The notes under the pieces are model-generated. The model worked only from the letters and a program-made list of their open reading frames with translations. It searched no databases and was not told the DNA's origin. From NCBI RefSeq assembly GCF_009834535.1, contig NC_045696.1, forward strand, positions 22,570,001 through 22,634,000: a DNA stretch of 64,000 nt, given 5' to 3'. This document shows, one piece after another, positions 14,881 through 59,189 of the stretch (its first letter is position 1; each line of letters begins with the position of its first letter). Made by a program: the position numbers and the translations under genes. Source of the stretch: Camelus ferus (Eukaryota).

Positions 14881-16273
14881 AGTCATCTTATTCCTTCTCG
14901 TGTTGTAAGACTTGCTTAATTTTATCTACTAGATTGCCCCAAGGTCAGAGATTGTCTTTTCTTAGCCATATTTATAGAGTGACTATTCCAGTCCTTTTCA
15001 ATAAATATTTGTTGAATTTAATCCTAATGTTATCAGAAAATGTTGGCACTTTGCCCAGTCTTTGTCTAAATGTGATTGATGGTTGACAGACACTGACTAG
15101 TGCTTTTTGTTACCTATTTTTTTTCAAAAAGATTCCCATTTGTCAGTATTTGAGCTAATACATTTTTCCACCTCAAAGTCATATTTTAACTCCTAGTTCA
15201 ATTTTGTACAGATTTACCTTTCGGCTCTCATGTAAAGTAAAAGTTTTGTAAAAGGCATAGCATTATATTTAATAGCTAGTGCTAGGTGGAGGCAACCAGA
15301 GCATTACTGAAATCAAATTAATTGGCCAGAAGGGACTGAGCCTGGAAGCATTTTGGATTAAAACTGTTCTCTTCACTGCTGTCTGGGACAATATATTTAA
15401 AATAAAACTGCTTTACATAAAAGTTCTGTTGCAATTCAATCCTACAGAGACATTTCTCTTCTCACAAAACATCTAGAGTGTTTTTCCAATAAAAAACAGT
15501 GAGTTGGGATTGTTTTTATCTTCCTTCACATTAAATTCACATATTCCCCATGATAAAATTAAAAATAGCTCGCTTGTTTTATGCATTGTATTGGAGTGTC
15601 TTTATATAAATACATTAGGAGGGTTTATGGGTATATATGTGCATATATTTAATATATGAGTCTATAGCTGTTAGGGCATTTGTGGGATGAGAGAGAGCCT
15701 TAAAAAGCAAAGAAAGAAAGTCTTAGAGGGATACATACTTGTTAGAATTTACTTGAGTTCTACTGAAGTATCATTATTTCAGAAAATGTACTTAGAGAAG
15801 GTAAACCTTCATTTTGAAATAATTGAAAACCTGAAATTAAAAGAGAATGTTTCAAAGATCATATACATTAGACTGTTTAAGCTTTATCAATATGTGCATA
15901 TGATTTTGACATATTTTATCAGTAAGATTTCTAGGGAAGTCTGAAAATATAGAATATGAGAGACATATTCCTTAAATTACTGAACTGTAGCTCTTTAAAA
16001 AGTGCTAACACAGAGGGTCATTGCTTTTTTTAAAAACGAGGCATTAAAGAGTTTCTTTAGGTCGTACTAGATATACTTGGAGGCATGTCCGAATTCTCAA
16101 CTTCCATTTTCCCCTAGATCTTTTGAAGGTGGCTGATGCAGAAATTTACTTTTACTGTCCTTTATCTTCAAAACCAGGTTTGATATGTGATCCTGCTGGA
16201 AAGAGGTAATGAGAAAGGAGAAAATATGACTCAGAAAAGGGAAGTTGAAGCAAAGCTTTTTTAAAAAAAAAAC

Positions 16274-19362: not shown

Positions 19363-20143
19363 ACTGCCCACCACTCTTAAAGAAAAAGATATTTCCTCCA
19401 AAAACAGGGTGTGGCTTATCAAGATTAAATTGAAAACTAACTTTAAAATGTAAAAATTGGCCTTGATGTAAATTTAATAGCTATGAAGGAAAATAGGGCT
19501 TGGTGGGAGGGGACAAGTAATATTATTGGTTCAACATTTAGGGCAATGTAAAACAAAGTTTAAGTAGGATTTCTCTAATCCTACTGAGATAATAACTTGC
19601 TTAGGATAAGAAAGTGAAGACGTTGCAAAGTGTAAAATAATTTATTGATATTTGGTTTTTCAAAGTGTGGAGAAGGCTTGATTTGACAATTAATTTTAGA
19701 CAAATATCTACTTATTATGAAAGCAGACAAGTACTCCATCCTATAGAAGAATCATAATTAAGATCAAAATATTTTACTTGGGGAAAGATTCACACACTGC
19801 TTACAAGTAGTTTTTTTTGGAAACAATAATATATATTGATCATTTTGTAATGTTCAGTTTACACTGGAAGGCATTTGAGCTTCACAGAAAAAAAAAGAAA
19901 AAATCAAGTGAGAAGTTATATGTCTGTCTCATTGTTTGGCCAGATTAAACCAGGCACAATACTCTAAGGCTGTTGGCTCCAGACCAGAATTTTTCAAGAT
20001 TAAGGTTGACGGCTGTTTTATATCCAGCCAAAATTTATTATCTCTAGAAGCAATATGAATGTCTTCTTTAATTATGGAAATTCAATATGATCCTGAATAT
20101 GAAACTTCATAGAAGGAACTAAATTTGCTTTTTAATCGTTAAC

Positions 20144-22416
20144 CTGATGTGGCAAACTGATTAAGAAGAAAAGGGCTTCTCTGTTGACTAAAAAGATGCA
20201 AAGCATAGAGAGCTGGCGCCTTGTGCAAAAACACAGAAACATCAGAAGCAGAGATTTTGAGTTATGGGCAAGAGCACTGGTATCTACAGTTCTGTCTAAG
20301 TGGGGTCCCCACATTTAGAATTTCCACTAAATAGTAGCCCCATGAGGGGACAGGACACTCCCTCAACACACATACACGTGCTCATGCACACCACCCTCAC
20401 TCCCGTCCAAGCCAGTGTAGGTGGGATCTGAAACAGACTCGCAACCCCAACCCTAGTCTGGTCAGCATCCTCTCCCATGGACTTGTTCACACAATGAGCT
20501 GGGGTGATCATTTGTTCTTAGGAATTTGAATCAAGAGGCAGAAAGAAAATTTGACTGTTGTTTTCCCATATTTCCTTGAAATTAGAGCAGATTTTCTATT
20601 TGTGGAATACAGAATAATTCTTCAGAGGGGAAATGGTGGAATCCAAGGTGTAGGGCTTGGAATGAATACAAAACTTGTGAGCAAAGGGAAAGAGGGAAAA
20701 AAGAAGGGACACAAAAAGACTGCCTTGACTTCAGCAGATAATTTCATGTGACACTGAATTAAAAAAATCAGGGCTTGTAGAGTAATTGGGATCATGGGAT
20801 TGCCCGATGAGGAGTATGAATTCTGCCCAGTGATTAATAACCCAAGATCTCTCTAAACCATAAAGCAGGAGGAGTGGCATCATCAGAGCAGGAGGCGTGA
20901 AATCTAATGCAGTGGTGACATGGAAGGGAGCTAGGGGCAGAGATACCTGCAGGGAGACCGTGGAGGCGTTGGTGGTGGTGGGGATGAGCGTCTGGCTGGG
21001 AAAATTGCTCTAGAAAAAGAAGCTTAATTTCACACTCTTCCTGTTACCTTCTTCATTTTTTCACTCCTTGTTGACTTTATCACCCTCTTCCATGTTCCCT
21101 TTCCATTGCCTTTCCTATTGGACTTCTTGCCACTGTTACTCTGTGGTCATGTATTAAGCAATATCCACTCCTGCTAAAATTTCTTGAATAATAACCCCCC
21201 TTCTGCATGCTGTCATCCTAATAACCTCGCTATTTAGGTTTCCTGAAATAACTGTCGGGAAGTAAATACCTTTCGCATATGGATACATATTACTCTAAAA
21301 TGTTGGAGGTTGCTGCCTTTTCTTCAGCCACAGAAATTTCATCAATTTTCAAAAGTCATTAGGCTGTAAGAAGTCAATTCAGTTTTCCAAGATTGCTTTG
21401 GCTCCGCTTGTATTTTCTTATCCATAAACATGCTTATCAACTTTGCTGCTTCATGTGTCATTCGATTGGAGAATGCTGAAAATATAAGCATCTGCTTTTA
21501 ATAAGTATAAACTAATGCTAATCCCAGAGAAGCCCAACCATAAAGATAACAAAATTAATAATAAAAGGAAAAGTATAAAGATACGTCTAACTCTTAGAAA
21601 GCTCACCCTTTGATACGTATGTAAGTGAGTCAGCGTCATGGAGGGATTCTTTTTAATGATTCCTCTCCAGATTCACTTGAGTGTTGTTAAATGATTTTTT
21701 TTTTCTGACTACTTGGCTAAGAGGCAAAGACCAAAATGATGGAGGCCAATTGAAGAATAAGAAGTGATAAAAACAAAATCACTGATATTTTAATAAAAGT
21801 AGATGAACTACAGAAACGATTTACCAAAATTCTATCTGTTCACAACTTTTTAGCATTTCTTTTGGATGAGCTCAGGATCCAACTTTACACTCATTCCATT
21901 TATCCACGGTGTAGATCTGCTTCACTTTCCTGGTGACCATGCTTGTGGGTGAGGCTGATTTTTAGGGTGGGGTCCTGAGAGGAGGGATTTTTGGGGGGAA
22001 TTAAGGGAAAGTGATTTTACCATTCTCAGTTCATCTGTATCCCAGTTAGTAGGTAAGAGCTTGCCTTTCTCAATGATCTCACCAGTAAACTATAATTAAG
22101 GGACAGGAGTGTTAGTCGGTACCTCCCGAGTCTGAGAGCTGCAGCTACTGTCATTCTGACACCCACCCCGTGTCACGTCCCCCGTAGAACTCTGGAGACT
22201 TTCAATTCTGTTCTCAAGTGGTTCTCCCTGGGAGACTGTGGGTGGGCCTTTGATTTCAGGAGTGGTGGTAAAGGCACGACGTTTGGCAGAGGTATTACCA
22301 GACTTGTACCCACAAAAACTTGAAATTATATCAACAAATTGTGAGGTCACACAGGTTGACTTTATGTCCTTTACGCCCTTTTCTTCTTCGTGCCCTATAA
22401 TTTTGTTTAAGCACTT
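20144..22416 (-). pseudogene. Candidate decayed multi-exon gene segment (family unidentified)
   Basis: Exon-like segments ~22416-21825, 21716-21607, 21475-21270 and 20187-20144, separated by GT-AG introns of 108, 131 and ~1080 nt. Translation is protein-like with stops and frameshifts (see findings). Confidence 0.4.
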
Positions 22417-24004
22417 TTACATGTTCAGCTGATACTGAACATGCTGTTCTGGTCTGTGTGTTTCCCCATCTTGTACACCAATCCTTATCCTTCATCTCTG
22501 TCAAAACTTACCTCAAAATTAATTTCTTATGAGGAATTATTCATGATTAGCCTGGCTTGATATTCTTGATAACTTTACTGCTGTGGTATTCAGAAATGAA
22601 TTTGGAGCTATATTAAGCCATATTAAATTCATTTACATGTTATCTCCACATGTGTACTTCATTTGTTGTTTTGGGGTAGGTTCCTGTGTATATAAATAGT
22701 TTCAGCAAAAGTCCCTGAAGTCAAGGACTGTGCCATAGATTTATTATAGCTTCCCGGCTCTCTGTAATGTCCTTTTCTCAATAAAGAAACATTGCTGGCT
22801 GAGAGCCTGGAACTGGAACGCAGCAGCCTCTTCGTAGAAATGTCTTTTATTAGGATAAAGGTGCTTTAGAGAACCCAGGGGCTTGCTAGGGATTCCCCTA
22901 GATGTCTCTGTCAGTCCTACTCTTGTTTGTCCTGAATCCACCACATGAGTTAGATGCTCATCTGACTGTGTCAGCTGCCAGCCGTCAAGGATGTCCTGGA
23001 AATTCCAAGCCCTGGTTGTTCTGCTTTTCCTTCCTTTGCTTCAGAGCTTACACACTGCCAATGATTTCCATCATATGACAATTTGTGAATGTTAGCATTA
23101 CTCAAATTAAAGTGCCTGTCTGCTTTCTTGTGCTGAATCCTCACTGATCCCCTGCTGAGTCCAACAACTGGTCTGTGACAAGTCCCCCCAGTTGTGCAGC
23201 TGTGTAATGGCTCTCACTTACTTACTGCAGCAGTCAGACATGACAGGTCACAGCAAATCAGAGACTCAAACGTTGAAACAAACGTTGAAAATTCCATGAA
23301 AATCCAAAAGGCCAAAACCTTCCTGACTTTTGTTCTTTGAACTGCATCGTTGAAGGGACAGCAGGATTTACCTGGGTCACCACCAAAATGCCAATGAGGA
23401 GAAACTTAAAAATCCTCAGGAGAGCTTTTCTGAAACTGGCTAAGTGGGGATCCTAGGGGAGATTGAGAATGAATCAAGTACTTCTTGATCATCTTTTATT
23501 ATGCACCAGGCACTGTCCTGAGCACTTCCAGAGAATTGTCTAATTTTATGAAATCAAATCTCCCTGTGTCTGAAACTTGTATTTTCCATTTCCTATCAGG
23601 GCCTCATCTTTTCCTAAGGAATTCCAGAGCAGTTGTAGATAAGAAATATATTAGGATCTTCAAAAGATTTTACTTCACCACCTGTGGGCCCTCAGATATG
23701 GTTGAAAATGACAGTACTGCAACTTAAAACAGCCTGCAAGATAAACTGACAAGTGTTTAAGAGGAAAGATACCAGATGTTATTACTCACATCATGATGTA
23801 TTTTTTGAGAGAGCCTCACATCGTAATGATGTATTTTTCACATATGATTTATTAATTTTTTATCTCTGTTAAACAAGTAAACAACAAATTTGTAAAGAAT
23901 GGGAAGCAAAAAATAATAAATTAAAAAGCATTTCAACACAGAGACAGCCATGTGCAACAACGTACAGGCAGCTCTTGCTACATAACATCCACTCTTCTTA
24001 AATA

Positions 24005-24337
24005 TGTGTGAGAAAAGGGAACCCTTATACACTGTTGGTGGGAATGTAAATTTGTGCTGCCACTGTGGAAAACAATATGGAGATTTCTCAAAAACCTAAA
24101 AATGGAGCCGCCATATGGCCCGGCAATTCCACTCCTGGGCATATATCTGAGAAAAACAAAAACATTAATTCAAAAAGATACATACACCCCACTATTAATA
24201 GCAACATTATTTATAATTGCCAAGATATGGAAGCATCCTAAGTGCACATCAATAGATGATTGGATAAAGAAGATATACGTGTATATATAATGGAATACAA
24301 CTCACCCATAAAAAAGGGTATTTTGCCATTTGTAGCC
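24005..24337 (+). mobile_element. L1 ORF2 C-terminal fragment
   Basis: Translates [29 protein letters not shown]...DWIKKI. Confidence 0.9.
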
Positions 24338-24414
24338 CTTCATTCACTGTTTTTTTTTTTTTGTTTTTTTTTTTCCTCACTTCAAAAACCAGAATTTTAT
24401 AACTGGCATAAACA

Positions 24415-24713
24415 TTTCCATTGTATCAAAAAGAACAAAATACCTAGAAATAAACTTAACCAAGGAGGTTACCTGTATTCTGAAAACTATAAAACACTGA
24501 TGAAGGAAATTGAAGATGACACAAAGAAATGGAAAGATCTTGTGCTCTTGGATTGGAAGAATCAACATTTTCAAAATGGCCACACTACCCAAAGCAATCT
24601 ACAGAGCCAATGCAACCCCTGTCAAAATACTCACGATGTTTTTCACAGAACTAAAACAAACAATTCCAGAATTTATTTGGAACCATAAAAGACCCCGAAT
24701 TGAAAAGCAATCT
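24415..24713 (+). mobile_element. L1 ORF2 fragment (end of RT / thumb region)
   Basis: Translates [22 protein letters not shown] / [29 protein letters not shown], frameshifted. Confidence 0.9.
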
Positions 24714-25314
24714 TTTGTAGGTCTTTCTTTTTTTCTCCTTCTTTGTTTTGTTCTTTTTTCTTACGGTCTGATGATTAGAGAAGTTCCTTTAACATTTGTT
24801 GTAAAGCTGGTTTGGTGGTGCTAAGTTCTTTTAGCTTTCGTTTATCTGTGATACTTGATTTCTCCATCAAATCTGAATGAGAGACTTGCTGGATAGAGTA
24901 TTCTTGGTTGTAAGTTTTCCTCTTTCATTACTTTAAATATATCGTGCCACTCCCTTCTGGCCTGTAGAGTGTCTGCTGAAAAATCAGCTGATAACCTTAT
25001 GGGAGTTCCCTTGTATGTTATTTGTTGCTTTTCTCTTGCTAATTTTAATATTTTCTCCTTATCCTTAATTTTTGTCAATTTGATGACTATGTGCTTTGGT
25101 TTGTTTCTCTTTGAGTTGATCCTGTGCACTTCCTGGACTTGGGTGACTGTTCCCTTTTCCAAGTAATGGAAATTTTCAGTTATTATTGCTTCAAATATTT
25201 TCTCAGGTCCTTTCTCTCTCTCTCCTCTTCCTGGAACCCCTATAATGCGAATATTAGTGGGCTTCATGTTGTCCCAGAGTTCTCTTAAACTATCCTTATT
25301 TCTTTTCATTCTTT

Positions 25315-25476
25315 GTTGTTGTTGATGTTGTTGTTGTGTGGTTTTTTTTTGGGGGGGTTATTAGGTTTGTTTGTTTATTTGTTTATTTATTTATTTATTT
25401 ATTTATTTAAATGGAAGTACTGGGGATTGAACCCAGGACCTTGTGCATATGCTAAGCATGTACTCTACCCTCCCCC
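25315..25476 (-). mobile_element. Vic-1-type camelid tRNA-derived SINE inserted in L1 ORF1
   Basis: Reverse complement reads ggggagggtagagtacatgcttagcatatgcacaaggtcctgggttcaatccccagtac. TSD TCATTCTTT at 25306-25314 and 25477-25485. Confidence 0.85.
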
Positions 25477-25634
25477 TCATTCTTTTTTCTTTTTTCTGTT
25501 CTACAGTAGCAGTTTCCACTAATCCATCTTCTAGCTCACTAATCCATTCTTCTGCCTCATTTAGTCTATTCTTGGTTTCTTCTAGTGTGTTATTCATTTC
25601 AGTGATTTTATTCTTCATCTCTGTTTGGGTATTC

Positions 25635-25745
25635 ATTATATTTTATATTTATATTCTTTATATATTTTTATATATATATATATATATATAGGTATTCTTT
25701 ATATTTTTATATTTATTCTTCATCTCTGGGTATTCTTTATATTTT
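25635..25745. repeat. (TA)n / AT-rich slippage expansion inside L1 ORF1
   Basis: (TA)n at ~25669-25690 with a duplicated tattcttcatctctg...gggtattc block on both sides. Confidence 0.8.
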
Positions 25746-27489
25746 CCAACTCTTTGCTAAAACTTTGTTCTGTGCATCTGTACTCATTTTGAGTTCTCTG
25801 AACATCTTCACCATCATTACTTTAAACACTTTCTTGTATAAATTGCCTATCCTCTCATCACTTACTTCTTCTTGTGGAATTTTATCTTGTGCCTTGGCCT
25901 GGGAGATATTCCTTGGCTGCCTCATATTGTCTATCTTTCTATTTGTATTTTTAGGTAGGTTAGTTACGTTTCTCAACCAAGGAAATATGGCTTTCTGTGG
26001 GAGATGTCCTATGTGTCCCAGCAGTACACTCCTCTGTTGTCACCCAAGGGCCAAGGTCCAGCCAGTCTCAGTGTAGAGTCTATCCTGTGTTTGTGGATTC
26101 CTTCCACAGGCTTTGGAATTGTTGTTTTCTTATTTCTGGTACCTGCCTCCTGGTGGATGAGGCTGAACTAGAGGCTTATGCAGGTTTCCTGTCAGGAGGA
26201 GTTTGTGCCTGCCCACTGTTCAGTGAAGCTTGGTCCTTGACCTCTGGTGGGTAGGGCCAGAGGCATTTGTGGCTCAGGAAGTTTGCTGATGGGTGCGGCT
26301 TTATTCCCACCTAGTATGTTGTTTGGCTTGAGGCTTCCCAGTCCTTAAGCCTACAGGCTATTGAGTAGGGTTAGGTCTTGGTGCTAATGATTCAATCAAG
26401 ATGTCAGCCTCCAGGAAAGCTCATGTAGATGAACACTCCTGGATTGTCCACCACCAGCTTTTATGTCCCCTCGGTGAACTGCAGCTGTCCCCTACCTCTC
26501 CAGGAGATCCTCCAAAACCAGCAGGCAGGTCTGGCCCAGGGTCCTATAAAATCACTGCCTCTGCCCTTGGACCTGGTGCACAGGAGATTCTGTGTATCCT
26601 TCCCAAGAGAATGAAGTCTCTGTTTCCTCCAATCCTGTGGGGCTTCTGGGGTTAAGCCCCACTGGCTTTTAAAACCGGATGTCCTGGGGTCTCCTTCTCC
26701 TCTCAATGCCAGAACCCCAGGCTAGGGAGCCTGATGTGGGGCTTAGAACTCTCACTCCTGTAGGAGGGCCTCTGTGACTTAATTATTCTTCAGCTTGTGG
26801 GTTGCCCACCCTGGGGGTATGAGGCTCAATTCTATTGTGAGTACGCCCCTCCTACCATCCTGCTGTGGTTCCCTCTTTATGTTTTCAACTGAAGAAGATC
26901 TTTTTTGCTAGGTTCCAGTCTTTTTTTTTTTTTTTTCTATGGTTGTTTAGCAGTTAGTTGTGGTTTTGCTGTAGTTGCAAGGAGAGGCGAGCTTGTGGTC
27001 CTATTACACCATCTTGACGGGACCCTGTAGGAGTGATTTTTAATTGATCTCAGTTTTCAGAAAAGACATAGTGATACAATAATTTGATTTACATTAAATT
27101 AAGAGAAAAGAAATTAAGCTCCATGTTATATACTCAGATGTTTCCTTTTGTCTGAAATGCTATGCCAATCTGAGGAATCTGACAAAATTTCATTTAATTT
27201 TTAAAACGAATTCAAATGACATCTCCTCTTTCCCACTCAAGTAATCTCTTTTTGTTCAAACCACCAACTGAGTACTCTTTACACTTCATCAGCTAAACCA
27301 TATGTTTATCTGGTTCCCATGTAGACCATGCTTTCCTCCAAAATGTCATGTCCTAGCTTTGTGTGGCCAGCACTTACCTAATTTTTGCTGAATAAATGGA
27401 TAAGGGCTGAAGTCCCAAGGGGATTACTATTTTTAACTTTATTTCTTATTAGTTTGCATGCTAATTGTTTTACGTTTTAAAAATAGATT

Positions 27490-27643
27490 AATTTATTTAA
27501 TTTTTATTTCATTTATTTTTTGAAGAGGGGGAGATAATTAGGTTTATTTATTTACTAATTTTTTTAATGGAGGTACTAAGGTTGAACCCAGGACCTTGTG
27601 CATGCTAAATGTGCACTCTACCACTGAGTTATTACCCTCCCCC
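27490..27643 (-). mobile_element. Vic-1-type SINE, near full length
   Basis: Reverse complement GGGGAGGGTAATAACTCAGTGGTAGAGTGCACATTTAGCATGCACAAGGTCCTGGGTTCAACC has A- and B-box-like motifs, followed by AAATAAACCTAATTATCTCCCCC and an A tail. Confidence 0.88.
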
Positions 27644-29495
27644 GTCAAGGGGATTATTAATAAAATAGGTAGAAGAGGGAGGAGCAGTGATGAAGTCCAC
27701 ATAACATCCATAGTGAATTTGTAGGCCATATATGATCACAGCCATCATCGTTAGGAGCCTGGGAAAATAAAAAGAACTGGGATGAAGACTGGTTTTCTTC
27801 CTGAACTGATCACCTGCTGCCTGCAGCGTTCTAGAAAAATGGGTAAAAAAAATCAATTTTGAGTTAATGTGTGGAGGGTAGGAGTGGAGAACAACGCTCA
27901 TTTCAGTCACTAAAGCTGATTGAGAGTGTGATCAGTGCTCAGGGCAGAAAATCACTCCAAATTACCTGAAAACATATTATTACCCAAGCCCCAAATAAGG
28001 CCAAGCCTAATGCAATAGGAAGTACATTTCAAATAGATTCGTATATCTATCCATCTGCCTCAATCTAATTTACCATTTGCAATTATAAGCATTTCATTAA
28101 TCGGTCAACAAGGCATATTTATAAGGCACATTAATTCATAGCTTACAATGGTAAACTGACTTATTTTAAAGTCAACCTTGATATCTGAGCAAGGAAAAGC
28201 TAACGCTGTTTATTCCAGTGCTCGGTTTTATATTAAAGTGTTGGATTGCGAATTAGGTTTAAGATGTAAGTCAACCAGTATGTTAATAAATGCTTTAGTT
28301 TATTATTAATAGTTTAAAGAGGTGAATTGTTGATTGAGTCTAAATGATATATGATAGATGTAACATGAATATCAACGTTTTAAAAATGCAGGCAATAGAA
28401 GAACATGATTAAAATTAATCTTTCATGTTAGCAGGTTGGCTTCCTGTCTGTTATGTCTGTGAAATATGATCATAATATCTTGCTATTTCTAAGAGTCAAG
28501 TTTTAAGACACATAATCAGGAGAAATGATACAATTTTTAAGTTCCTAGAGGCATTTGCAGCCAACTATTCTGTAATATTTAAATGACTGAATAAGCATTT
28601 TGGATATGATAATATAATCCTGGTTTCCTGCACCTGTGAATTACAAGTCTAAAGTGTGTGACTGAAGATGAATAATTATCTCAAAACAAATGGATACTCT
28701 TTTCAATGTAATCACACAGAAGCTTTCTTTTTTTGGTCTAAACGTCTGCTGATACCAGGATAATTGTGAATTTCTGTGTTAGTATATGAGTTTCCTCTTC
28801 AAGCTCTCATTTGTTAAATTGAGCCAAAAACAAGGTCTTATTCTCTTGGATGCTTTCTATTGTTACATTTTTCATCTTTTCCTGCCTTTCTGAGCCAAAA
28901 AAGAGTTCTCAGGCATTCTTTTACCTAACCTGACATTGACCATCTAATTAAGTTTGAAAAATATTATCAGAAGCATAATCAATGTTTGCTGAAACTCCCA
29001 TGTCCTAACAGCTAATCCAAAACCTCATGATTCAATAGCAGATCTTACCTGATAATTATAACCCTACCACTATATTAAAGGCAGCCAGAAACATGTAAAT
29101 CTGATTTCATATTTTCCATCCAGCAGTGTTACATACAATTAGCTTCTAGTGCCTGGAGCTTTAGCAAAAATATTGATTAACTTTCAAACAATGCTATGGA
29201 TAGTAAAGTGTTGAATTTTGCTGCAGGTGAAATGTGTCCTGTCAAATAATAATCAGCCAATTCACCTGTGTATTTGAGGAAAGAATTCACATTTGGCAGA
29301 TCATAAACCAACATAGACATTAATATTGATTTGAGTATTCTTACTTGTTTTAACACTTATCACACACATTTTTAGGAACACCCTGGCCTTGGATATTTAT
29401 TCACATTAATATTACTATACACATTCCTTCAATTAAGAGATACCCTAATAACAATTACTGTGCTCATTTTCCCACCTGGGAAGCAAAATGGCCAA

Positions 29496-30390: not shown

Positions 30391-32332
30391 CAAAGTGGCC
30401 AAGTTTTAAAACCATCCTGAACATATTATCCAGTCCAAACAGTATCTACTGAAGAATGTTAAGATGTTATTGCAGAGGCTACTGGGAAAAACAGACCTTG
30501 CTGTAAGAATTTTCAGGCTATAAATTGGCTTGGGGTGGCAGGTGAGTCGTTTTATCCTCTCTGGATTTCAGCCAGTACAAAGTGAAGTGTCTGCACTAGA
30601 TCATCTCCAAAGTCATTTCCAGTTACAGGAGGAAAAACATTCAAAACACATAAATTCTAATTTTCAAGCCATTTGATTCAGCCTCACTTTTTCTGTTGAA
30701 TTATTTGGCATGTTTTTAAGAATTGCCATTTAATTAGTCATTAAAGTGAATACTGTTCTTCAGCCCCGGTTGACTTGGTTATGACAACCTACTTCTTTGT
30801 GACTTTTTCTTCCTAACTTAACCAAAACACAAGGAGATTCCGTGTGTTACATAAGGGAATAAATATGGAAATAAACAAAATATCTAGTACTCCTAATTAA
30901 GACCTCCTCTCAGGAAGACAGAGTTGTACCTTGTGGCTCTGTTTTGATAATCCAGAAATGCAGAGAGTAACTTGTAGGGGTCAAGTATTCAGATAGCTCT
31001 ACAACTAATTCACGTAACCACAACCAAGTTGGAACATTTATTTTCCAAAAGCTTTTGGGTAAAGCTCTGAATTGCTACCATTTTACCTCTAGAGACCATT
31101 TTACCTCTAGAGAACAGAACATTTTCTTAATATTACAAGCAATTTCACTAAAAAGCACTTAATACCCACAATAAACTATATCACAAATGGCTAAGCCAAG
31201 AATATAGATTTAGGGAAGCTTATGACCTTGTCATTATCAGGTACAAAGGAAGAAGGCAATTTCTTTGTGTTTAATTGCATTTAAATTTTACACCACAACA
31301 GTTGAAATGAGAATTGTTAGTCATTTAAAGAGGCACTTTACAGATTAATTTAAGGACATATACTTGGACTATTTAGAGAGGCCTAAAAAATAATAAAAGG
31401 GAGTTTTATTTGGAAAAATCCCTCACTTCTTTGCAGCCCATATCAGAATCTATTACTGCAGCTCTGTGCTGGATGAATAGGTTTGTGTGGGCACAGAGAG
31501 AAGGGGCTGGCATTTACCCAGAGGCCTTTCCATTTTCTAAAATTGAAAACCCTCTCAGTCACCGTAAATTAAGTTTAATTTAAATAATGTGATATCAACT
31601 ATCTACAAACAATAACTAAATTGTATAAGGGGGTAAAAAGACAAAATGAGAGTAAGACAAAGTGTTAAAGAGCTGAAAATCCCTTCTAAAACAAATAAAC
31701 AAAAACCCAAACTGAAATCATGAAGCTCTTAAGATGGTGTGTTAGTAATTTGGGTTTATTCCTCACGCACCAGCCAAGCTCCAAATTATAAAGTGCACTT
31801 GGACAGCACCAGCCTCAGGGTCATGGAACCAGATCTTTTCCCCTTGATTCTGATGCTGACTTTCTGAGAGACATGAAGCAAACTTCAAGGAAATTGAAAA
31901 GGAAGACAGCTGGGGAGGAGGAGGAGGAGAATGAGGAAAAAAATGGGGAGAAAAAAGGAAGAATGGGAGGTGGTGGATGGTTGGTGGTAAGGGAATATCT
32001 GTATAGTACAGAAGAAACCCAGACAAAGAGAAAAAACTCAAAAAAAAAAAAAAAAAGAAAAAGAAAAGTCATTCAGATGCTTTTGGGTTCTTACCTCTGT
32101 ACATTCCAGAAGATTTAGAAAAGCAAGCAGCAGTGGGAGCTTATGTTATGCAATTTCTTCCTAGAAAGAATTTACCATCTTAGAAATCAGGAAATTTGGC
32201 TTACTTGAAGTCGTCATTATTATTTTTCTGGAAATGTGAGACTCTAACTTGTTTATGGCCTATAAATACTGTGTTCAACATCAAATGTGTACTTCCATTT
32301 AGTCAAGTTTATGCTATTAGGACACTAAAATA

Positions 32333-34295
32333 TAGGCATGCCTTGGAGATATTGTGGGTTTGGTTCCAGACCATTGCAATAAAGCAAATGTCACAATAAA
32401 GCAAGTCACACAAATTGTTAGGTTTCTCAATGAATATAAAAGTTATGTTTACTGTAGTCTGTTCAACTTGTAATAGCATTATATATAAAAACACTACATA
32501 TATACCTTAATTAAAAAAACTATATTGCTAAAAATTGCTAACCATCATCTGAGTCTTCAGTGAATTGTCATCCTTCTGCTGGTGGAGGGTCTTGCCTCAA
32601 TGTTGATGGCTGCTGACTGATCAGGATGGTATTTGCTGAAGGCTGAGGTGTCTGTGATGATTTCTTAAAATAAGACTACAGTGAAATTTGCCACATCAAT
32701 TACTCTTCACTTCATGAACAGTTTCTCTGTAGCATGTATGATGTTTGATAGCATTTTACCCACAGTAGAACTTCTTTCAAAATTGGAGTCATCCTCTCAA
32801 ACCCGGTGTTGCTTTATCAACTGTTTATTTAGTATTTTAAATCCTTTGTTCTCATTTCAGCAGTCTTCACACCACCTTCACCAGGACTAGATTCCATCTC
32901 AAGAAACCACTTTCTTTGCTCATCCATGAGAAGCAACTCCTCATCCGTTAGAGTTTAATCATGAGATTGCAGCAATTCAGTCACATCTTTAGGCTCCATT
33001 TCTAATTCTTATTCTCTTGCTATTTCCACCACATCTGCAGTTACTTCCTTCACTGAAATCTTGAACACCTCAAACTTGTTCACTTCTTCCCATGAATCAC
33101 AAATATCCTTAATGGCATCTAGAATGGCGAATCCTTCCCAGAAGATTTTCAGTTTACTTTGCTGAGATCCATCAGAGGACTCACTATCCATAGCAGCTCT
33201 AGCCTTACTAAATGTATTTTTAAATAATAAGACTTGAAAGTTGAGATGAATTCTTGATCCATGGGCTACAGAATGGTGTGTTAGCAGGCATGAAAACAAC
33301 ATTAATCTCATTGTAAATCTCCGTCAGAGCTCTTGAGTGACCAGATGTGTTGTCCGTGAGCATTCATATTTTGAAAGGAGTCTTTTTTCTGAATAGTAGG
33401 TCTCAATACTTGGCTTAAAATATTTGGTAAACCATATTGTAAACAGATGGGTTGTCATCCAGGCTTTGTTGGTCCATTAAAAGAGCACAGGCAGAACAGA
33501 GTTAGCATAATTCTTAAGAGTCTTAGGATTGTCAGAATTATAAATGAGCACTGGCTTTAACTCAAATAAAGCCCACATTATCCCCTATCAAGAGAGTCAG
33601 CCTGTTCTTTGAAGCTTTGTAGCCAATCATTGACTTCTCCTCTCTAGCTATGAAAGTCCAAGACAGTATCTTCCAATATAAGGCTGTTTCACCTACAATA
33701 AAAATCTGTTGTTTGTTGTAACCACCTTCATTAATGATCTGAGCTAGATTTTCTGGAGAACTTGCTGCAGCTTCTACATCAGCACTTGCTGCTTCACCTT
33801 GCATTTTTACGTTATGGAGATGGCTTCTTTTCTTAAACCACATAAACCAAATTCTGCCAGCTTTAAACTTTTCTTCTACAGCTTCCTCACTTCTCTCGGC
33901 CTTCAGAGGATTAAAGAGAGTTAGGGCCTTACTCTGAGTTAGGCTTAGGCTTAAGGGAATGTTGTGGCTGGCTTGATCTTCTATCCAGACCCTAAAACTT
34001 TTCCCATATCAGCAATAAGGCTTTTTCACTTTCTTATCATCCATGTGTTCAGTGGAACAGCACTTTGAATTTCCTTCAAGAGCTTTTCCTTTGCCTTCAC
34101 AACTTGGCTAAGTGTTTGGCACAAGAGGTCTTGTTTTCAGCCCATGTTGGCTTTGGACATGCCTTCCTCACTAAGCTTAGTCATTTCTGACTTTTGATTG
34201 AAAGTGAGAGACGTGTGTATGTTTCTTACACTTGAACACTTGGAGGCCGTTTGTGAAGTTATTAATTGGCCAAATTGTAACATTGTGTCTCAGAT
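32333..34295 (-). mobile_element. Tigger1 (TcMar/pogo) DNA transposon, ~2 kb, 5' end missing
   Basis: TA plus the terminal repeat (c>t)aggcatgccttggagatattg at 32331-32352. Transposase remnants [25 protein letters not shown]...ETALYWK (33562-33843) and [24 protein letters not shown] (33009-33311). Confidence 0.93.
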
Positions 34296-35416
34296 AGAAG
34301 AGAATATGTGAAAGGAACGTAGGAGAGATTATCTTGAAAGAAAAGTAAAGGGTAAATTTTAAAGAGAAGCAAAATTTAAAATACACTCAGTAAACCTGAA
34401 AATGCAATGTAACTTATGTGCCTAATTATTTGCATGTCTCTGTGTGCCTTAATTTATTTTAAAATATTCTAAAATGCCTATGATAACATTATTTTTACAA
34501 AGATCTGGGCATTTGATCTTAGGAAGAACAAAGGTGCATGCATGTTTTTGCAAGATTGGTCTGTCCACTCTATGGGGGGTTCTCTTTTGAGAATTTTCAC
34601 CCAAATCACATTTCCCCCCACTTGTCTAAGTGAACTGTACATATAGAGGAGAAAAGTGGTCCTTGAGGAGAGCACTGTGATATGTGGGGTCTCAGAGGTC
34701 ATGCGGTACAGCATAAAGATGGAGCTGGGCAGACTCTTAACCTCTCCCTTTTATGGTACCAGGATGGGACAGGTTTGGCGACCAATGTGTAGTGACCCCT
34801 TAAAAAATGAACTGACCTGGGCATTTATTTGTTGGTAAAAATTAGTTTTTATCCTTACAACATTTATAACTCTAAAAAGCGGGTGAGATAAATTGTCTTT
34901 GAAAAGGCACAAACACAGTCAATCTTACCAAACTTTTTGGGGAAAAAATATGGTTTCCCCTAATTTCTTTCTTCCCATACATCTCCATTCCTTTACCTCT
35001 AGAAGAAGTGTAACTCTGAAAACTCAATGGATATATACATAATATACATTTATTGCCCAAAACATAGATATTTGTTAAAAATTTTTTTACCCATCTTCTC
35101 ACTATCCAGAGGTACGCACTGGAGACATTTTGGTATGTTTTCTTTCAATTGTGTATTTATCTATCTTTTTACAGCCTCACAAAATTGTATGCTTCTGTAC
35201 ATATGGATTTACACCAGGGCTTATATCTTGTCTTTGCATCATGATTATGTGCTTAGAGAAGTTTATTTCTATAGGTTCAGAGGTATTTACTGGGAAACAG
35301 AGTAATAAGGAGCCCATCACACTGCAGGAAATAAATGGAAGGGGAAGCAGGCAGATGGAGGGATGTATGTTAAATGATGCTGGAAATAAGCAAGGTTAGA
35401 GTCATTAACGCAGATT

Positions 35417-35730: not shown

Positions 35731-38389
35731 TAGATGCAATTTTTAAAATAATTATTTATTGATTATTATTATATTTTGTGAGAGTGTAGTATCTCACAGA
35801 GTTCAATTACACAGGGCAGAGCAGAGATGACAGTTTTTCTTCTTTATGGCCATCACATCTTGCTGACTTATTTTAGAGATTCTTGGTCCATATTTGAAAA
35901 TTGGCCATCTTTTATGAACAGGAAATTTTAGTCTAAAATATTTTATCATAGGATATGATAAATTGAAAATACATTCGATAATATTACGTTTCCAAATGAG
36001 CAACTTAAGAGCAGTAATAAGTTACAGCTCCCCTCAAGTTTCCATACTTATTAATCGATCTGAGAGGATTCGTTGAAAATGGTTTTCATTTAAACAAAAA
36101 CTCTAGTGTTTTACATTCAACATGCCAGAAGAACAGGTCTTTTAGGCTAGGCACATATGGGTGGTGGGTGTGAAGAGGAAGGCAGGAGGGCTATTAAAAA
36201 ATCGCAATTCGTAAGCAATACAGCAGTGGTGACCTTTGTGTCAAATGGTACATCTAGTCCTTCTGAGATGAAGATCATATTCCCGAGAAAATAAAGTTAT
36301 TCATCAGAATGAATTATGGAGTTGCTGTACTGCTTTATAACATCCAGACAAAGGAGGAATACAGGATATAAGACCAAAGAATGCCCTGTGGAGCCTTAGA
36401 AATTAAAAACAATCTCATAGGAGTAATGGTTTTTTAAAATCCACATATGGATAATGATTTGGAAGAGTTGAAAACTTTCTCATGTCTTACAACCCTCTTG
36501 ACTCCTTCTAAAGTTTCATGCCTTTGTGGTAGAGAAGAGTGAACTGAGGGAGAAAGGGATTTTCTTTATATTCAAATCACTCATTTTAAATGCATACAAT
36601 ATGTTTTCCATTTCCCATTATGTGAAATCTACTTTTTTTTTTTTTTTTCCACCTGCCTTATTCTTACAAGGAGAAACATGAAGGGGCTTTCTCTGGGACT
36701 ACTGACCTTGACTTATTGGTTATCTAGGTCTCTGTTGAGTACCATTTGTTTTTTACTCCGACCAGATGCAGACATTAGAGTTTAATGGGAGCAGAAAGGT
36801 AAAGGGTTGAGAAGACAGGAGACCACAGAGGATGTGAGAGCAAAATTTAGGTGGTGGAATTAGGCTGGAGGTTATGTCTGAGAAAACAAGAGACACAGGA
36901 AGAAGCTTTTTCTTTATTTGTGCGTTGACACAAAGGGTTTGGGTCTAAAGGCCCGACCTTCTCCAGACTGATTGATTTCTCCGGAGCATTTTGCCAAATT
37001 AATGGCTTTCACTAAATCAGTGACTTTAGCAGTTCTGTATTCCTCACGTACAGGTAATTGTGATGAGATAAAACACAAACTGTCCAGCCTAACAGTCGGG
37101 TTTTTTTTTTTTTTGACAAAATACATAGAAATATTTACTAAAACTATAATAGAGTACTTACAAACTTCAAATTATCTATCCATCTATCTTCGAAGAAAAA
37201 CGACATCATAAGCTAGACAGGAGGTGGCAGTTCCTGGAGGACTGCCTGGGATGTGTTGTGGAGCCTCAGGGGGGCGGGGGTGGCTGTTCCAAGCGACAGT
37301 GGCCAGGAGTGCGTAGGACAAAGGATGTCTGCTGTCGGCCCAGATGCCCGTGGGAGCCGTGGACTGGAGGCTGCACTGCAGTCAGAATGGAGATGTTTAT
37401 GAGCTCTGAACCCTGAGCTCTTCTGGGCCTGACAACGTGAGCTGTGGTAACTCAAGCTCTGGGTGTCAGTACGATTCAGGCTCATCAGTTTCACGCAAAC
37501 CACTGCAACAAACAAAAACTAAACAAGACAAAACACACTACCCTGCTTAGTAAGAGTGATCTATTTACCAAGCGTTACTCCTGGAACTGAGGCCTGGATG
37601 GAGTTTGGGGATAGAGCAATGGGACAAGTCCTTGTGACATCTACCTCACCCGCTGGTTAGAGGATTGGAAAGTGCTCCACTGAGGAGTGAGGCTCAGTGG
37701 CCCCACTGGGAAAGCACTGTCAACCCAAGCACAGGAGGGAGATTAGCAAACTCCAAGGACGGCACTCCAAAGCACAGGGCCTGCTTAGTCCCAGGCTGGG
37801 GCGGGGGCAGCGGCCTGGCTTTTGGGAATAAAGCTCTCATGTAGTGGGGCTGGTGCACTGCCATACACCTTGCTCAGAGTTAATTCCTTTAAGTTCTGCT
37901 TAAGATTTTTTTTTTTTTTTGCTTAAATTCATGATAATAGTGGCATATATTCGAGGTCAGGTTAATCAAATCTTTCAAGTTCTACAGAACCGACTTGTTT
38001 CTGTCCTGTCTACATCATCCCAAGAGACCACAGCTACAGTGAAGATTTTATTTTCAGTACTAACGTATGATGAGGGAGTTCTTTTTGGGAGACATTTTGC
38101 CCCCTTCACCTCAAGAAAGTAGGACTAAAAGCCCACTTGGGTATGATAGCAAAACTGTGAAATTAGGAGATTATTTCTGCCAGTAACGTCCTCACATTCA
38201 GGCTTCTCCTTTGGAATCTCCCTTAGATTGAACCTGTTTCCCCTCCCCCCATCCCCCTTCATTCCACTTCCCACTATCTTAGTGCCGTGAATTAGCTCCA
38301 AAGTTGTAGAAAGAACAGCTAAAAACAAATTGCAATTTATTTATCTTCTGAATCTTCCACAGAAGGCAACTGGCAGTGGTGCACAAGAA

Positions 38390-55049: not shown

Positions 55050-55250
55050 CTAGCAGCAGAGGTCACCGGCATTACAAACTTCTCTTTTGTTCCCTGTGAG
55101 TTGTTGCTGCTGTCAGAATGCCATCCTTTTTAAGAGTCACATGCAGCTGAGGAAACCGGAAAATAACCTGCAGCTTCTTCCGCAGTTACTACACGTTGAA
55201 GTGGAAATCAGTTCTTTGTGTCAAATTTTCCAGTGTGAGGAAGGGAAAAA
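55050..55250 (-). promoter_or_regulatory. Candidate promoter / first exon with consensus donor
   Basis: TAG|GTGAGT donor at 55050/55049. Clustered ETS-like (GAGGAAACCGGAAA) and E-box (CACATG, CAGCTG) motifs, with several retained CpGs. Confidence 0.3.
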
Positions 55251-58200: not shown

Positions 58201-59189
58201 GGACAGATAATATATGTAGCTGGCACTCTCACCCAAGGGGAACTCTTGTTTCACTTGGGGAATGGAGGCCAGCTCCCTGCAACTTAAAGAAAAGCTAATT
58301 TAGGACACATCTGAAAGCAACCGAAATGAGAAAGGAAAAGAAATCTCAAGTTACTGTGCAGTGTGCCAGCTGACCAAATGTAAAACAAAACAAAACAAAA
58401 CCAGATAATCTCCTCCTCCCCAGCTAAAGATGAAGGGGGAGAAGGGGCGGAGGGGGAGGGGAGGGGATGGAGAATATTTCTCTTTGTGCTTTCTCTGTAT
58501 TTGCTTTGGCTTTTTTTTTTTTTAAGATGCTTTCCGAAGTTTAAATTTGAAATTCGATGACTCCCAGGAGTAGACATGTTCTTTTCTCAGGTGTCATTTT
58601 TATATATTTTTGTCAAGCCCTTTAATAAGAAATCAAGAAGAACCATCATTTAAGTAAAAAAAAAAACAAAAACAAAAAAACAAAACATGGTTGACTCCAG
58701 GATAAAAGGTAGTAGAAATACAATAAATTCACCTAAAAAGGGGAGATTTCTTTGGTTAGTAGAAATAAGTCTGAGAACAGTACCTTTTAAAATATGACAT
58801 CTGGAACTCACTAGAATTTACTACTTAATGGAAAAAAAAAAAACCCTCCAGATTTAAAGAAACAAACAAACAAAAACTTTCTACCCAGAAGTTTTATTTA
58901 CCAAATTTATTTATTTTTATATATATATAGAGAGAGAAAGCAAGTGAAATTTAACTTTGTTTGCTATTTCATTTTAGGTAAAAAGATAAAAAGTTTTGAG
59001 ATAAAGAAGTGTTTATATGCTTTTGTAACTTAAAAGTGATTTTGATTTTAACATCAAACTCTTTCAGATTTTGGCTCATCATGAGAGCAAATGTCTTGGG
59101 GCATTTAGTCTTTAACTGAACTTCTTGAATGTGAAGCTTGCAAGAGACCATCACAGTGTCCCTTGCAAGGACATTTCATAGCGCATACA

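Follow-up and report, generated by a model that had tools for sequence, protein, structure and literature searches.

Unitary pseudogenes have been found by PhyloCSF, and several of them had first been annotated as lincRNAs or as uncharacterised proteins (Mudge et al. 2019, PMC6886504). In addition, some lncRNAs have been described as the fossil remains of protein-coding genes that were lost (Hezroni et al. 2017, PMC5577775). The locus reported here lies on the minus strand of a 64,000-nucleotide stretch of Camelus ferus DNA, hereafter the window. It resembles the unitary pseudogenes, as portrayed in the consulted sections of PMC6886504, in its multi-exon organization and in an apparent decay in place by stops, indels and the loss of the ATG and of splice sites. 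Those pseudogenes, by the same sections, have a named coding orthologue in another species, whereas we found none for the camel locus. With the fossil lncRNAs of PMC5577775, as far as the consulted parts of that study describe them, it would share the presence of spliced non-coding exons where a gene has been lost, along with little similarity to living proteins. The same parts tie each fossil lncRNA to a coding gene in another vertebrate, whereas XLOC_044875, the human lncRNA locus with which we compare the camel exons below, appears only in the conserved-lncRNA list; it is not among the 8 chromosome 21 rows of the table of fossil-derived lncRNAs. None of the 44 rows in Supplemental Data S3 of PMC6886504 is on chromosome 21, and the supplements of PMC5644071 contain no chr21 terms. 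The kind of object, a unitary pseudogene or fossil lncRNA, is well known, and the camel locus is a probable new case. We found no description of the locus in the literature listings searched; further supplements of PMC6886504 or PMC5577775, or the current GENCODE/RefSeq annotation, could already name it.

A preliminary description of the window had proposed a fossil exon-intron architecture on its minus strand. Upon re-reading of the sequence, all the boundaries that it named were found on that strand: donors after 21825 (GTAAAT), 21607 (GTGAGC), 21270 (GTATTT) and 20144 (GTTAAC), and AG acceptors directly before 21716, 21475 and 20187, together with the lengths given for both introns and for exons B, C and D. 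The features are as follows.

21825..22434, minus strand: exon A, 610 nt if counted from the AG before 22434; donor confirmed, acceptor very weak
22416-21825, minus strand: exon A within the limits of the preliminary description, with five in-frame stops
22096..22416, minus strand: open frame A1, 106 sense codons followed by a stop; it lacks a Met and has 9 CpG, within the top 1% of the window
22399..22401, minus strand: candidate decayed start codon ATT, in frame and exactly 577 nt 5′ of the donor, with ATA next at 22398; proposed from lengths only
21865..21867, minus strand: in-frame ATC, exactly 43 nt 5′ of the donor; likewise picked out from lengths only
21717..21824, minus strand: intron 1, GT-AG, T-rich, 108 nt (80 nt if exon B starts at 21744)
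21607..21716, minus strand: exon B, 110 nt from the present AG; strong donor (99th percentile)
21476..21606, minus strand: intron 2, GT-AG, T-rich, 131 nt
21270..21475, minus strand: exon C, 206 nt, second half readable only with a frameshift
20144..20187, minus strand: possible exon D of 44 nt, with a weak donor and neither a coding nor a composition signal

The long open stretch claimed for segment A was confirmed as 106 sense codons and a stop, as were the five in-frame stops, and the caveat attached to them, that every stop is one change from Gln or Arg, holds for any stop. The A-B-C frame is unreadable today, A1 being devoid of a Met, stops being present in A, B and C, and a frameshift in C; the stops and the frameshift count as disabling lesions only if the frame was once coding. 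The exon-intron structure, with GT-AG introns of 108 and 131 nt, is retained, which is not the pattern of a retrocopy. In its first frame, exon C is open over 43 codons and is then closed by two stops ending at exon offset 134. Within the skeleton, support is weakest for exon D and for the second half of exon C. The acceptor candidates of exon A score only −1.6 to −8.6 and none is usable; exon A may have been a first exon, possibly a coding one. A1 is also preceded, six codons upstream, by an in-frame stop. The best-scoring donor of this strand is at 22511, with 77 nt separating it from the point where exon A presumably starts; a fair acceptor is located at 22714, and there is none between this donor and exon A.

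Exons A and B can each be read in more than one way. The preliminary description had added one A to exon B, which is one of several fixes and probably an unnecessary one: read from 21744, exon B is 138 nt long and of phase 1/1, contains one stop and zero indels, and equals in length the human exon discussed below. A long pyrimidine tract precedes 21744 but no AG, with GG one base earlier. Within segment A, a good acceptor at 21974 and a good donor at 22082 bound a 108-nt stop-free stretch on the minus strand, a possible alternative or cryptic intron. If A is split at the acceptor preceding 21974, it joins B in a different frame with no indel. The score of this split was matched by 80 of 400 shuffles, and the split conflicts with the human phase; it stays a minor possibility.

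In a blind scan of both strands (128 kb) for exon-intron-exon-intron-exon chains, the chain 21824/21716/21606/21475 ranks first among the 30 chains listed, with a score of 33.1 against 27.8 for the runner-up, which lies inside an L1, and 20.2 for the best of 12 shuffles; the splice matrices and compositions used are approximate general-knowledge values, and the test is partly circular because the compositions were fixed after the T-rich introns and A-rich exons were known. The A-T skew is −0.41 and −0.33 in introns 1 and 2, and ranges from +0.15 to +0.34 in exons A, B and C. Donors are weak in three of four cases (83rd to 92nd percentile of GT sites), that of exon B being the only strong one. 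Exons B, C and D are absent from the 32 minus-strand exons of a simpler single-exon scan, which returned exon-like pieces at equal frequency on the two strands (32 on the minus strand versus 33 on the other).

As a coding test, the exons were scored against dinucleotide-shuffled versions of themselves, and as many as two frameshifts were tolerated. The B-C score was reached by 38 of 400 shuffles, and its stop and frameshift score alone by 189 of 400. For A-B-C as joined in the preliminary description, the corresponding numbers are 5 and 20 of 200 shuffles, a result that draws on the open stretch by which the locus had been selected. Some codon-position bias is present in B2 and C2 (matched by 6% and 1% of random stretches, respectively) and none in A1, A2, C1 and D, the score of A1 being matched by 57% of random stretches. 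In the model of the preliminary description, A1 has 0 lesions in 106 codons versus 5 in the following 94 (P of 0.004 at that rate). Stop-free runs of 106 codons cover 0.6% of the frame positions in the window, and the stop density in the second half of A is at chance level (5 stops or fewer in 55% of 90-codon stretches). Taken alone, the camel sequence points to a probable spliced unit with an uncertain coding past. The dead multi-exon gene put forward by the preliminary description is also the best reading here; its coding ancestry is, according to the shuffles, more than the camel sequence by itself can establish.

We searched for relatives of the locus among proteins, RNAs and repeats. Segment A, with X at its stops and without B, C and D, gave 0 HMMER matches in 1.84 billion representative proteins, which counts against an annotated intact mammalian orthologue. 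Word-based protein searches, which covered longer proteins only, were empty for A (proteins of 393 to 2000 aa), for C1 and for the outlying piece 1492-1623. Among 37 Pfam queries, nothing fell below an E-value of 0.1 on A to D, and the match of piece 1492-1623 to CATSPERB_C (E of 0.13) is at chance level. A PDB sequence search with 1150-1698 returned 0 matches, the best ESM atlas value for C1 (0.80, recognition 1177) is at chance level, metagenome pattern scans yielded 300 matches for C1 and 205 for A, none of which was confirmed, and a viral-contig pattern search yielded 0. The single-sequence fold of segment A is uninformative (pLDDT of 43, pTM of 0.19). The preliminary description had recognised no family, and our protein, family and fold searches were likewise without a match. 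The resemblance to RGS22/RGSL1 amounts to a handful of short motifs of helical appearance, noticed by eye in C and in candidate exons lying further out. An RGS-domain protein was rejected as a reading, no RGS match having appeared in the 37 Pfam queries up to E-values of 1 to 10, a search of low sensitivity for such short pieces.

The window is mammalian in kind, with L1, SINE and Tigger-type repeats, and the region is single copy within it. No Pfam transposon family was detected below an E-value of 0.1 in six frames of the region, in a scan that identified a Tigger-type transposase elsewhere in the window (E of 2e-7) but missed a clear piece of L1 ORF2. With Rfam, one tRNA-like SINE was found in the window and 6 sub-threshold matches over the region. 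Part of 20000-23000 is contained in 20 of the 24 sequencing runs listed; four RNA or probable RNA runs contain 0.21 to 0.39 of its words, close to the 0.29 expected of the spliced exons alone, fractions from unaligned reads that do not constitute evidence. An L1 occupies 24000-27050; its 5′ part is on the minus strand and adjoins a 3′ piece in inverted orientation (about 24010-24700), and its ORF1 contains a SINE insertion. The Tigger-type DNA transposon is at 32330-34300 on the minus strand and carries a Tc5 transposase DNA-binding domain.

Several other parts of the window have exon-like features. On the minus strand, 1623-1492 is an intact 44-codon exon-like piece bounded by AG and GT. The surrounding 1200-1625 interval (minus strand) also has a 100-nt gap and the spot of highest CpG content in the window, where a 14-bp hairpin (1386-1417) and a tRNA-like start are found; it matched no protein or RNA family above chance, and could represent either a small structured repeat or one more exon. 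Pieces with good acceptors are also found at 15738-16192, 19600-19741, 27636-27830 and 29046-29263 (minus strand), with no Pfam match and little composition signal. A patch richer in GC and CpG at 37121-37800 contains motifs resembling GC boxes and, near 37650, a strong donor on the minus strand; it is a possible promoter or first exon. In repeat-poor DNA, 55050-55146 and 58233-58310 (minus strand) are well-bounded exon candidates of 97 and 78 nt that could be lncRNA exons of the host gene.

Gene order and coordinates in human, mouse and cattle suggest, with an error of several hundred kb, that the window falls within the gene desert bounded by USP25/MIR99AHG and CXADR, its minus strand presumably being the human plus strand. 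Interpolation on these coordinates would put the window 0.5 to 0.7 Mb nearer CXADR than the exons of XLOC_044875, which, from its coordinates, is probably MIR99AHG/LINC00478, the host gene of miR-99a/let-7c/miR-125b-2. We found no support for C21orf37/LINC01549 as a counterpart. LINC00478 and LINC01549 are stated, in the consulted part of PMC8474378, to bound an intergenic region.

In supplementary file 3 of PMC5577775, XLOC_044875 is on the plus strand of hg19 chr21. Its distal exons are 609, 138, 177 (or 694) and 49 nt long, with a 98-nt intron after the 609-nt exon and a 2,774-nt intron after the 138-nt exon (PMC5577775). The longest AUG ORF listed encodes 105 aa, starting 577 nt and ending 262 nt before the donor; in another model, a 101-aa AUG ORF begins 43 nt before the donor, spans the 138-nt exon entirely and terminates at offset 122 of the next exon, of 177 nt, and two models start in or just before the 609-nt exon (PMC5577775). 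In these entries the two ORFs share one frame, which reaches the donor in phase 1, and each of the exon lengths 609, 138 and 177 is divisible by 3. Same-frame open runs of 117 and 104 codons within 964 nt occur in 0 of 12,608 camel stretches and in 4 of 40,000 and 1 of 20,000 simulations, numbers that are uncorrected for the size of the locus and assume that the 104-aa figure of the file belongs to the same frame. Because two long runs in one frame are so rare by chance, the human distal exons by themselves look like coding remnants.

The camel frame of 106 codons spans −592 to −272 relative to the donor and shares the phase of the human ORF; phase 1 at the ends of A and B, as claimed in the preliminary description, thus corresponds to the frame of the two long ORFs of the probable human counterpart. 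At the offsets of the human AUG codons, the camel sequence reads ATT (−577) and ATC (−43). Its first stops end at −271 and −265, versus −262 for the end of the human ORF, and the frame of exon C ends at offset 134 in camel versus 122 in human. Among 6,244 GT sites, only the donor at 21824 has the open frame, a short intron and an AT at both −577 and −43. Singly, the open frame occurs at 44 of these sites, the AT at −577 at 548, the AT at −43 at 542 and the short intron at 723; the open frame and the short intron had prompted the choice of the human row, and the two AT codons are predictions, with a joint chance of about 0.8%. A first-exon role for A would fit the start of human models there, the poor camel acceptor and the CpG kept in A1.

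In lengths, the likeness between the camel locus and the distal exons of XLOC_044875 thus comprises a long exon (610 nt in camel, 609 nt in human), a short intron (108 or 80 versus 98 nt), a possible 138-nt exon (110 or 138 versus 138 nt), the frame, the phase and the AUG offsets that fall on ATT and ATC, the human values being those of the consulted entries. The next intron and exons C and D, on the contrary, differ in size: intron 2 is 131 nt in camel versus 2,774 nt in those entries, exon C 206 versus 177 nt, intron 3 1,082 versus 468 nt, and exon D 44 versus 49 nt. The linked microRNA is missing from the window. In human, miR-125b-2 lies about 36.9 kb upstream of the 609-nt exon; it was not found in the 41.6 kb of window upstream, using Rfam and a 22-base motif, so that the camel interval would have to be at least 13% longer if the loci are orthologous. 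Three camel candidates for the human upstream exons of 94 and 114 nt were considered, none of them convincing, and three mouse rows near chr16:77.67-77.70 Mb lack similar exon sizes. Judging by lengths only, we consider it likely that the camel stretch is orthologous to hg19 chr21:17,999,495-18,003,808 (+), the distal exons of XLOC_044875.

Three other explanations of the locus have to be weighed. The one that survives best, although we regard it as unlikely, is that these are spliced exons of a lncRNA that never coded for protein, either distal isoforms of the host gene or a local testis-type transcript, whose frames are open by chance. This would agree with a camel locus in which the splice architecture is the strongest signal and the coding signal is weak, with searches that revealed no protein relative, and with the place of the human counterpart in the conserved-lncRNA list rather than among the derivatives of lost genes in the consulted tables of PMC5577775. 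It does not readily account for two same-frame human ORFs of more than 100 codons combined with three exon lengths divisible by 3, which are improbable without a coding past, or for a camel open frame that shares the human offset and phase. Less likely still is a chance pattern in a neutral gene desert, or a very old repeat, in which T-rich and A-rich patches and frequent GT and AG dinucleotides are read in their best frames. The equal numbers of exon-like pieces on both strands are compatible with such an origin, as are a stop density in B and C no different from that of the shuffles, the L1 ORF2 piece overlooked by Pfam and the fact that the locus was picked as the best-looking spot of the window; against it stand the score of the chain, above every other listed chain and all shuffles, and the two AT codons, each expected from the human row and each present in camel. 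Finally, we deem it improbable that the locus is not wholly dead, an exon A frame of about 105 codons having remained under selection after decay of the 3′ part, and being translated now or formerly as a short protein from its AUG in human and from a near-cognate codon or an upstream exon in camel, for the lesion-free A1, its retained CpG and a human ORF end only 1 to 4 codons from the camel stops have to be set against a camel frame with no Met, an upstream stop and no good acceptor, the lack of any codon-position signal, the selection of A1 for its openness and the absence of such a protein from the databases searched with segment A.

Altogether, we favor the view that the camel locus is probably what is left of a protein-coding gene with several exons that decayed in situ in camel as well as in human, and whose exons were recycled as distal non-coding exons of the host locus. 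The ancestral gene would probably have started at an AUG in exon A, which is now ATT or ATA, and its product might have been a low-complexity, likely disordered chain of about 190 codons running into the symmetric phase-1 exons B and C. From its composition, our guess is that the lost protein was fast-evolving, soluble and of a germ-line type. In the camel line, the gene would have died by loss of the start codon, nonsense changes and decay of splice sites, and in the human line through other stops. In human, the old splice sites would still serve non-coding exons, which either form part of the microRNA host transcript or belong to one that starts locally. Most likely, the camel locus makes no protein today. 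Exon lengths conserved over 700 nt would mean that selection acted for a long time in both lines, and the lack of an annotated mammalian protein is surprising in that light. A bolder proposition, which we consider doubtful, is that an unannotated mammalian protein gene, immediately past miR-125b-2 in the orthologue of human 21q21, kept its frame under selection for long after the human-camel split and was lost separately in the two lines, and that it is still intact in some mammals or that a product of 100 residues is made from the exons of the human MIR99AHG tail.

If the preferred interpretation as a decayed coding gene is true, a lost gene lies inside a well-studied microRNA host locus of chromosome 21 that has been regarded as purely non-coding. 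It would also add a case of separate gene loss in primates and camelids, together with the recycling of exons into a lncRNA.
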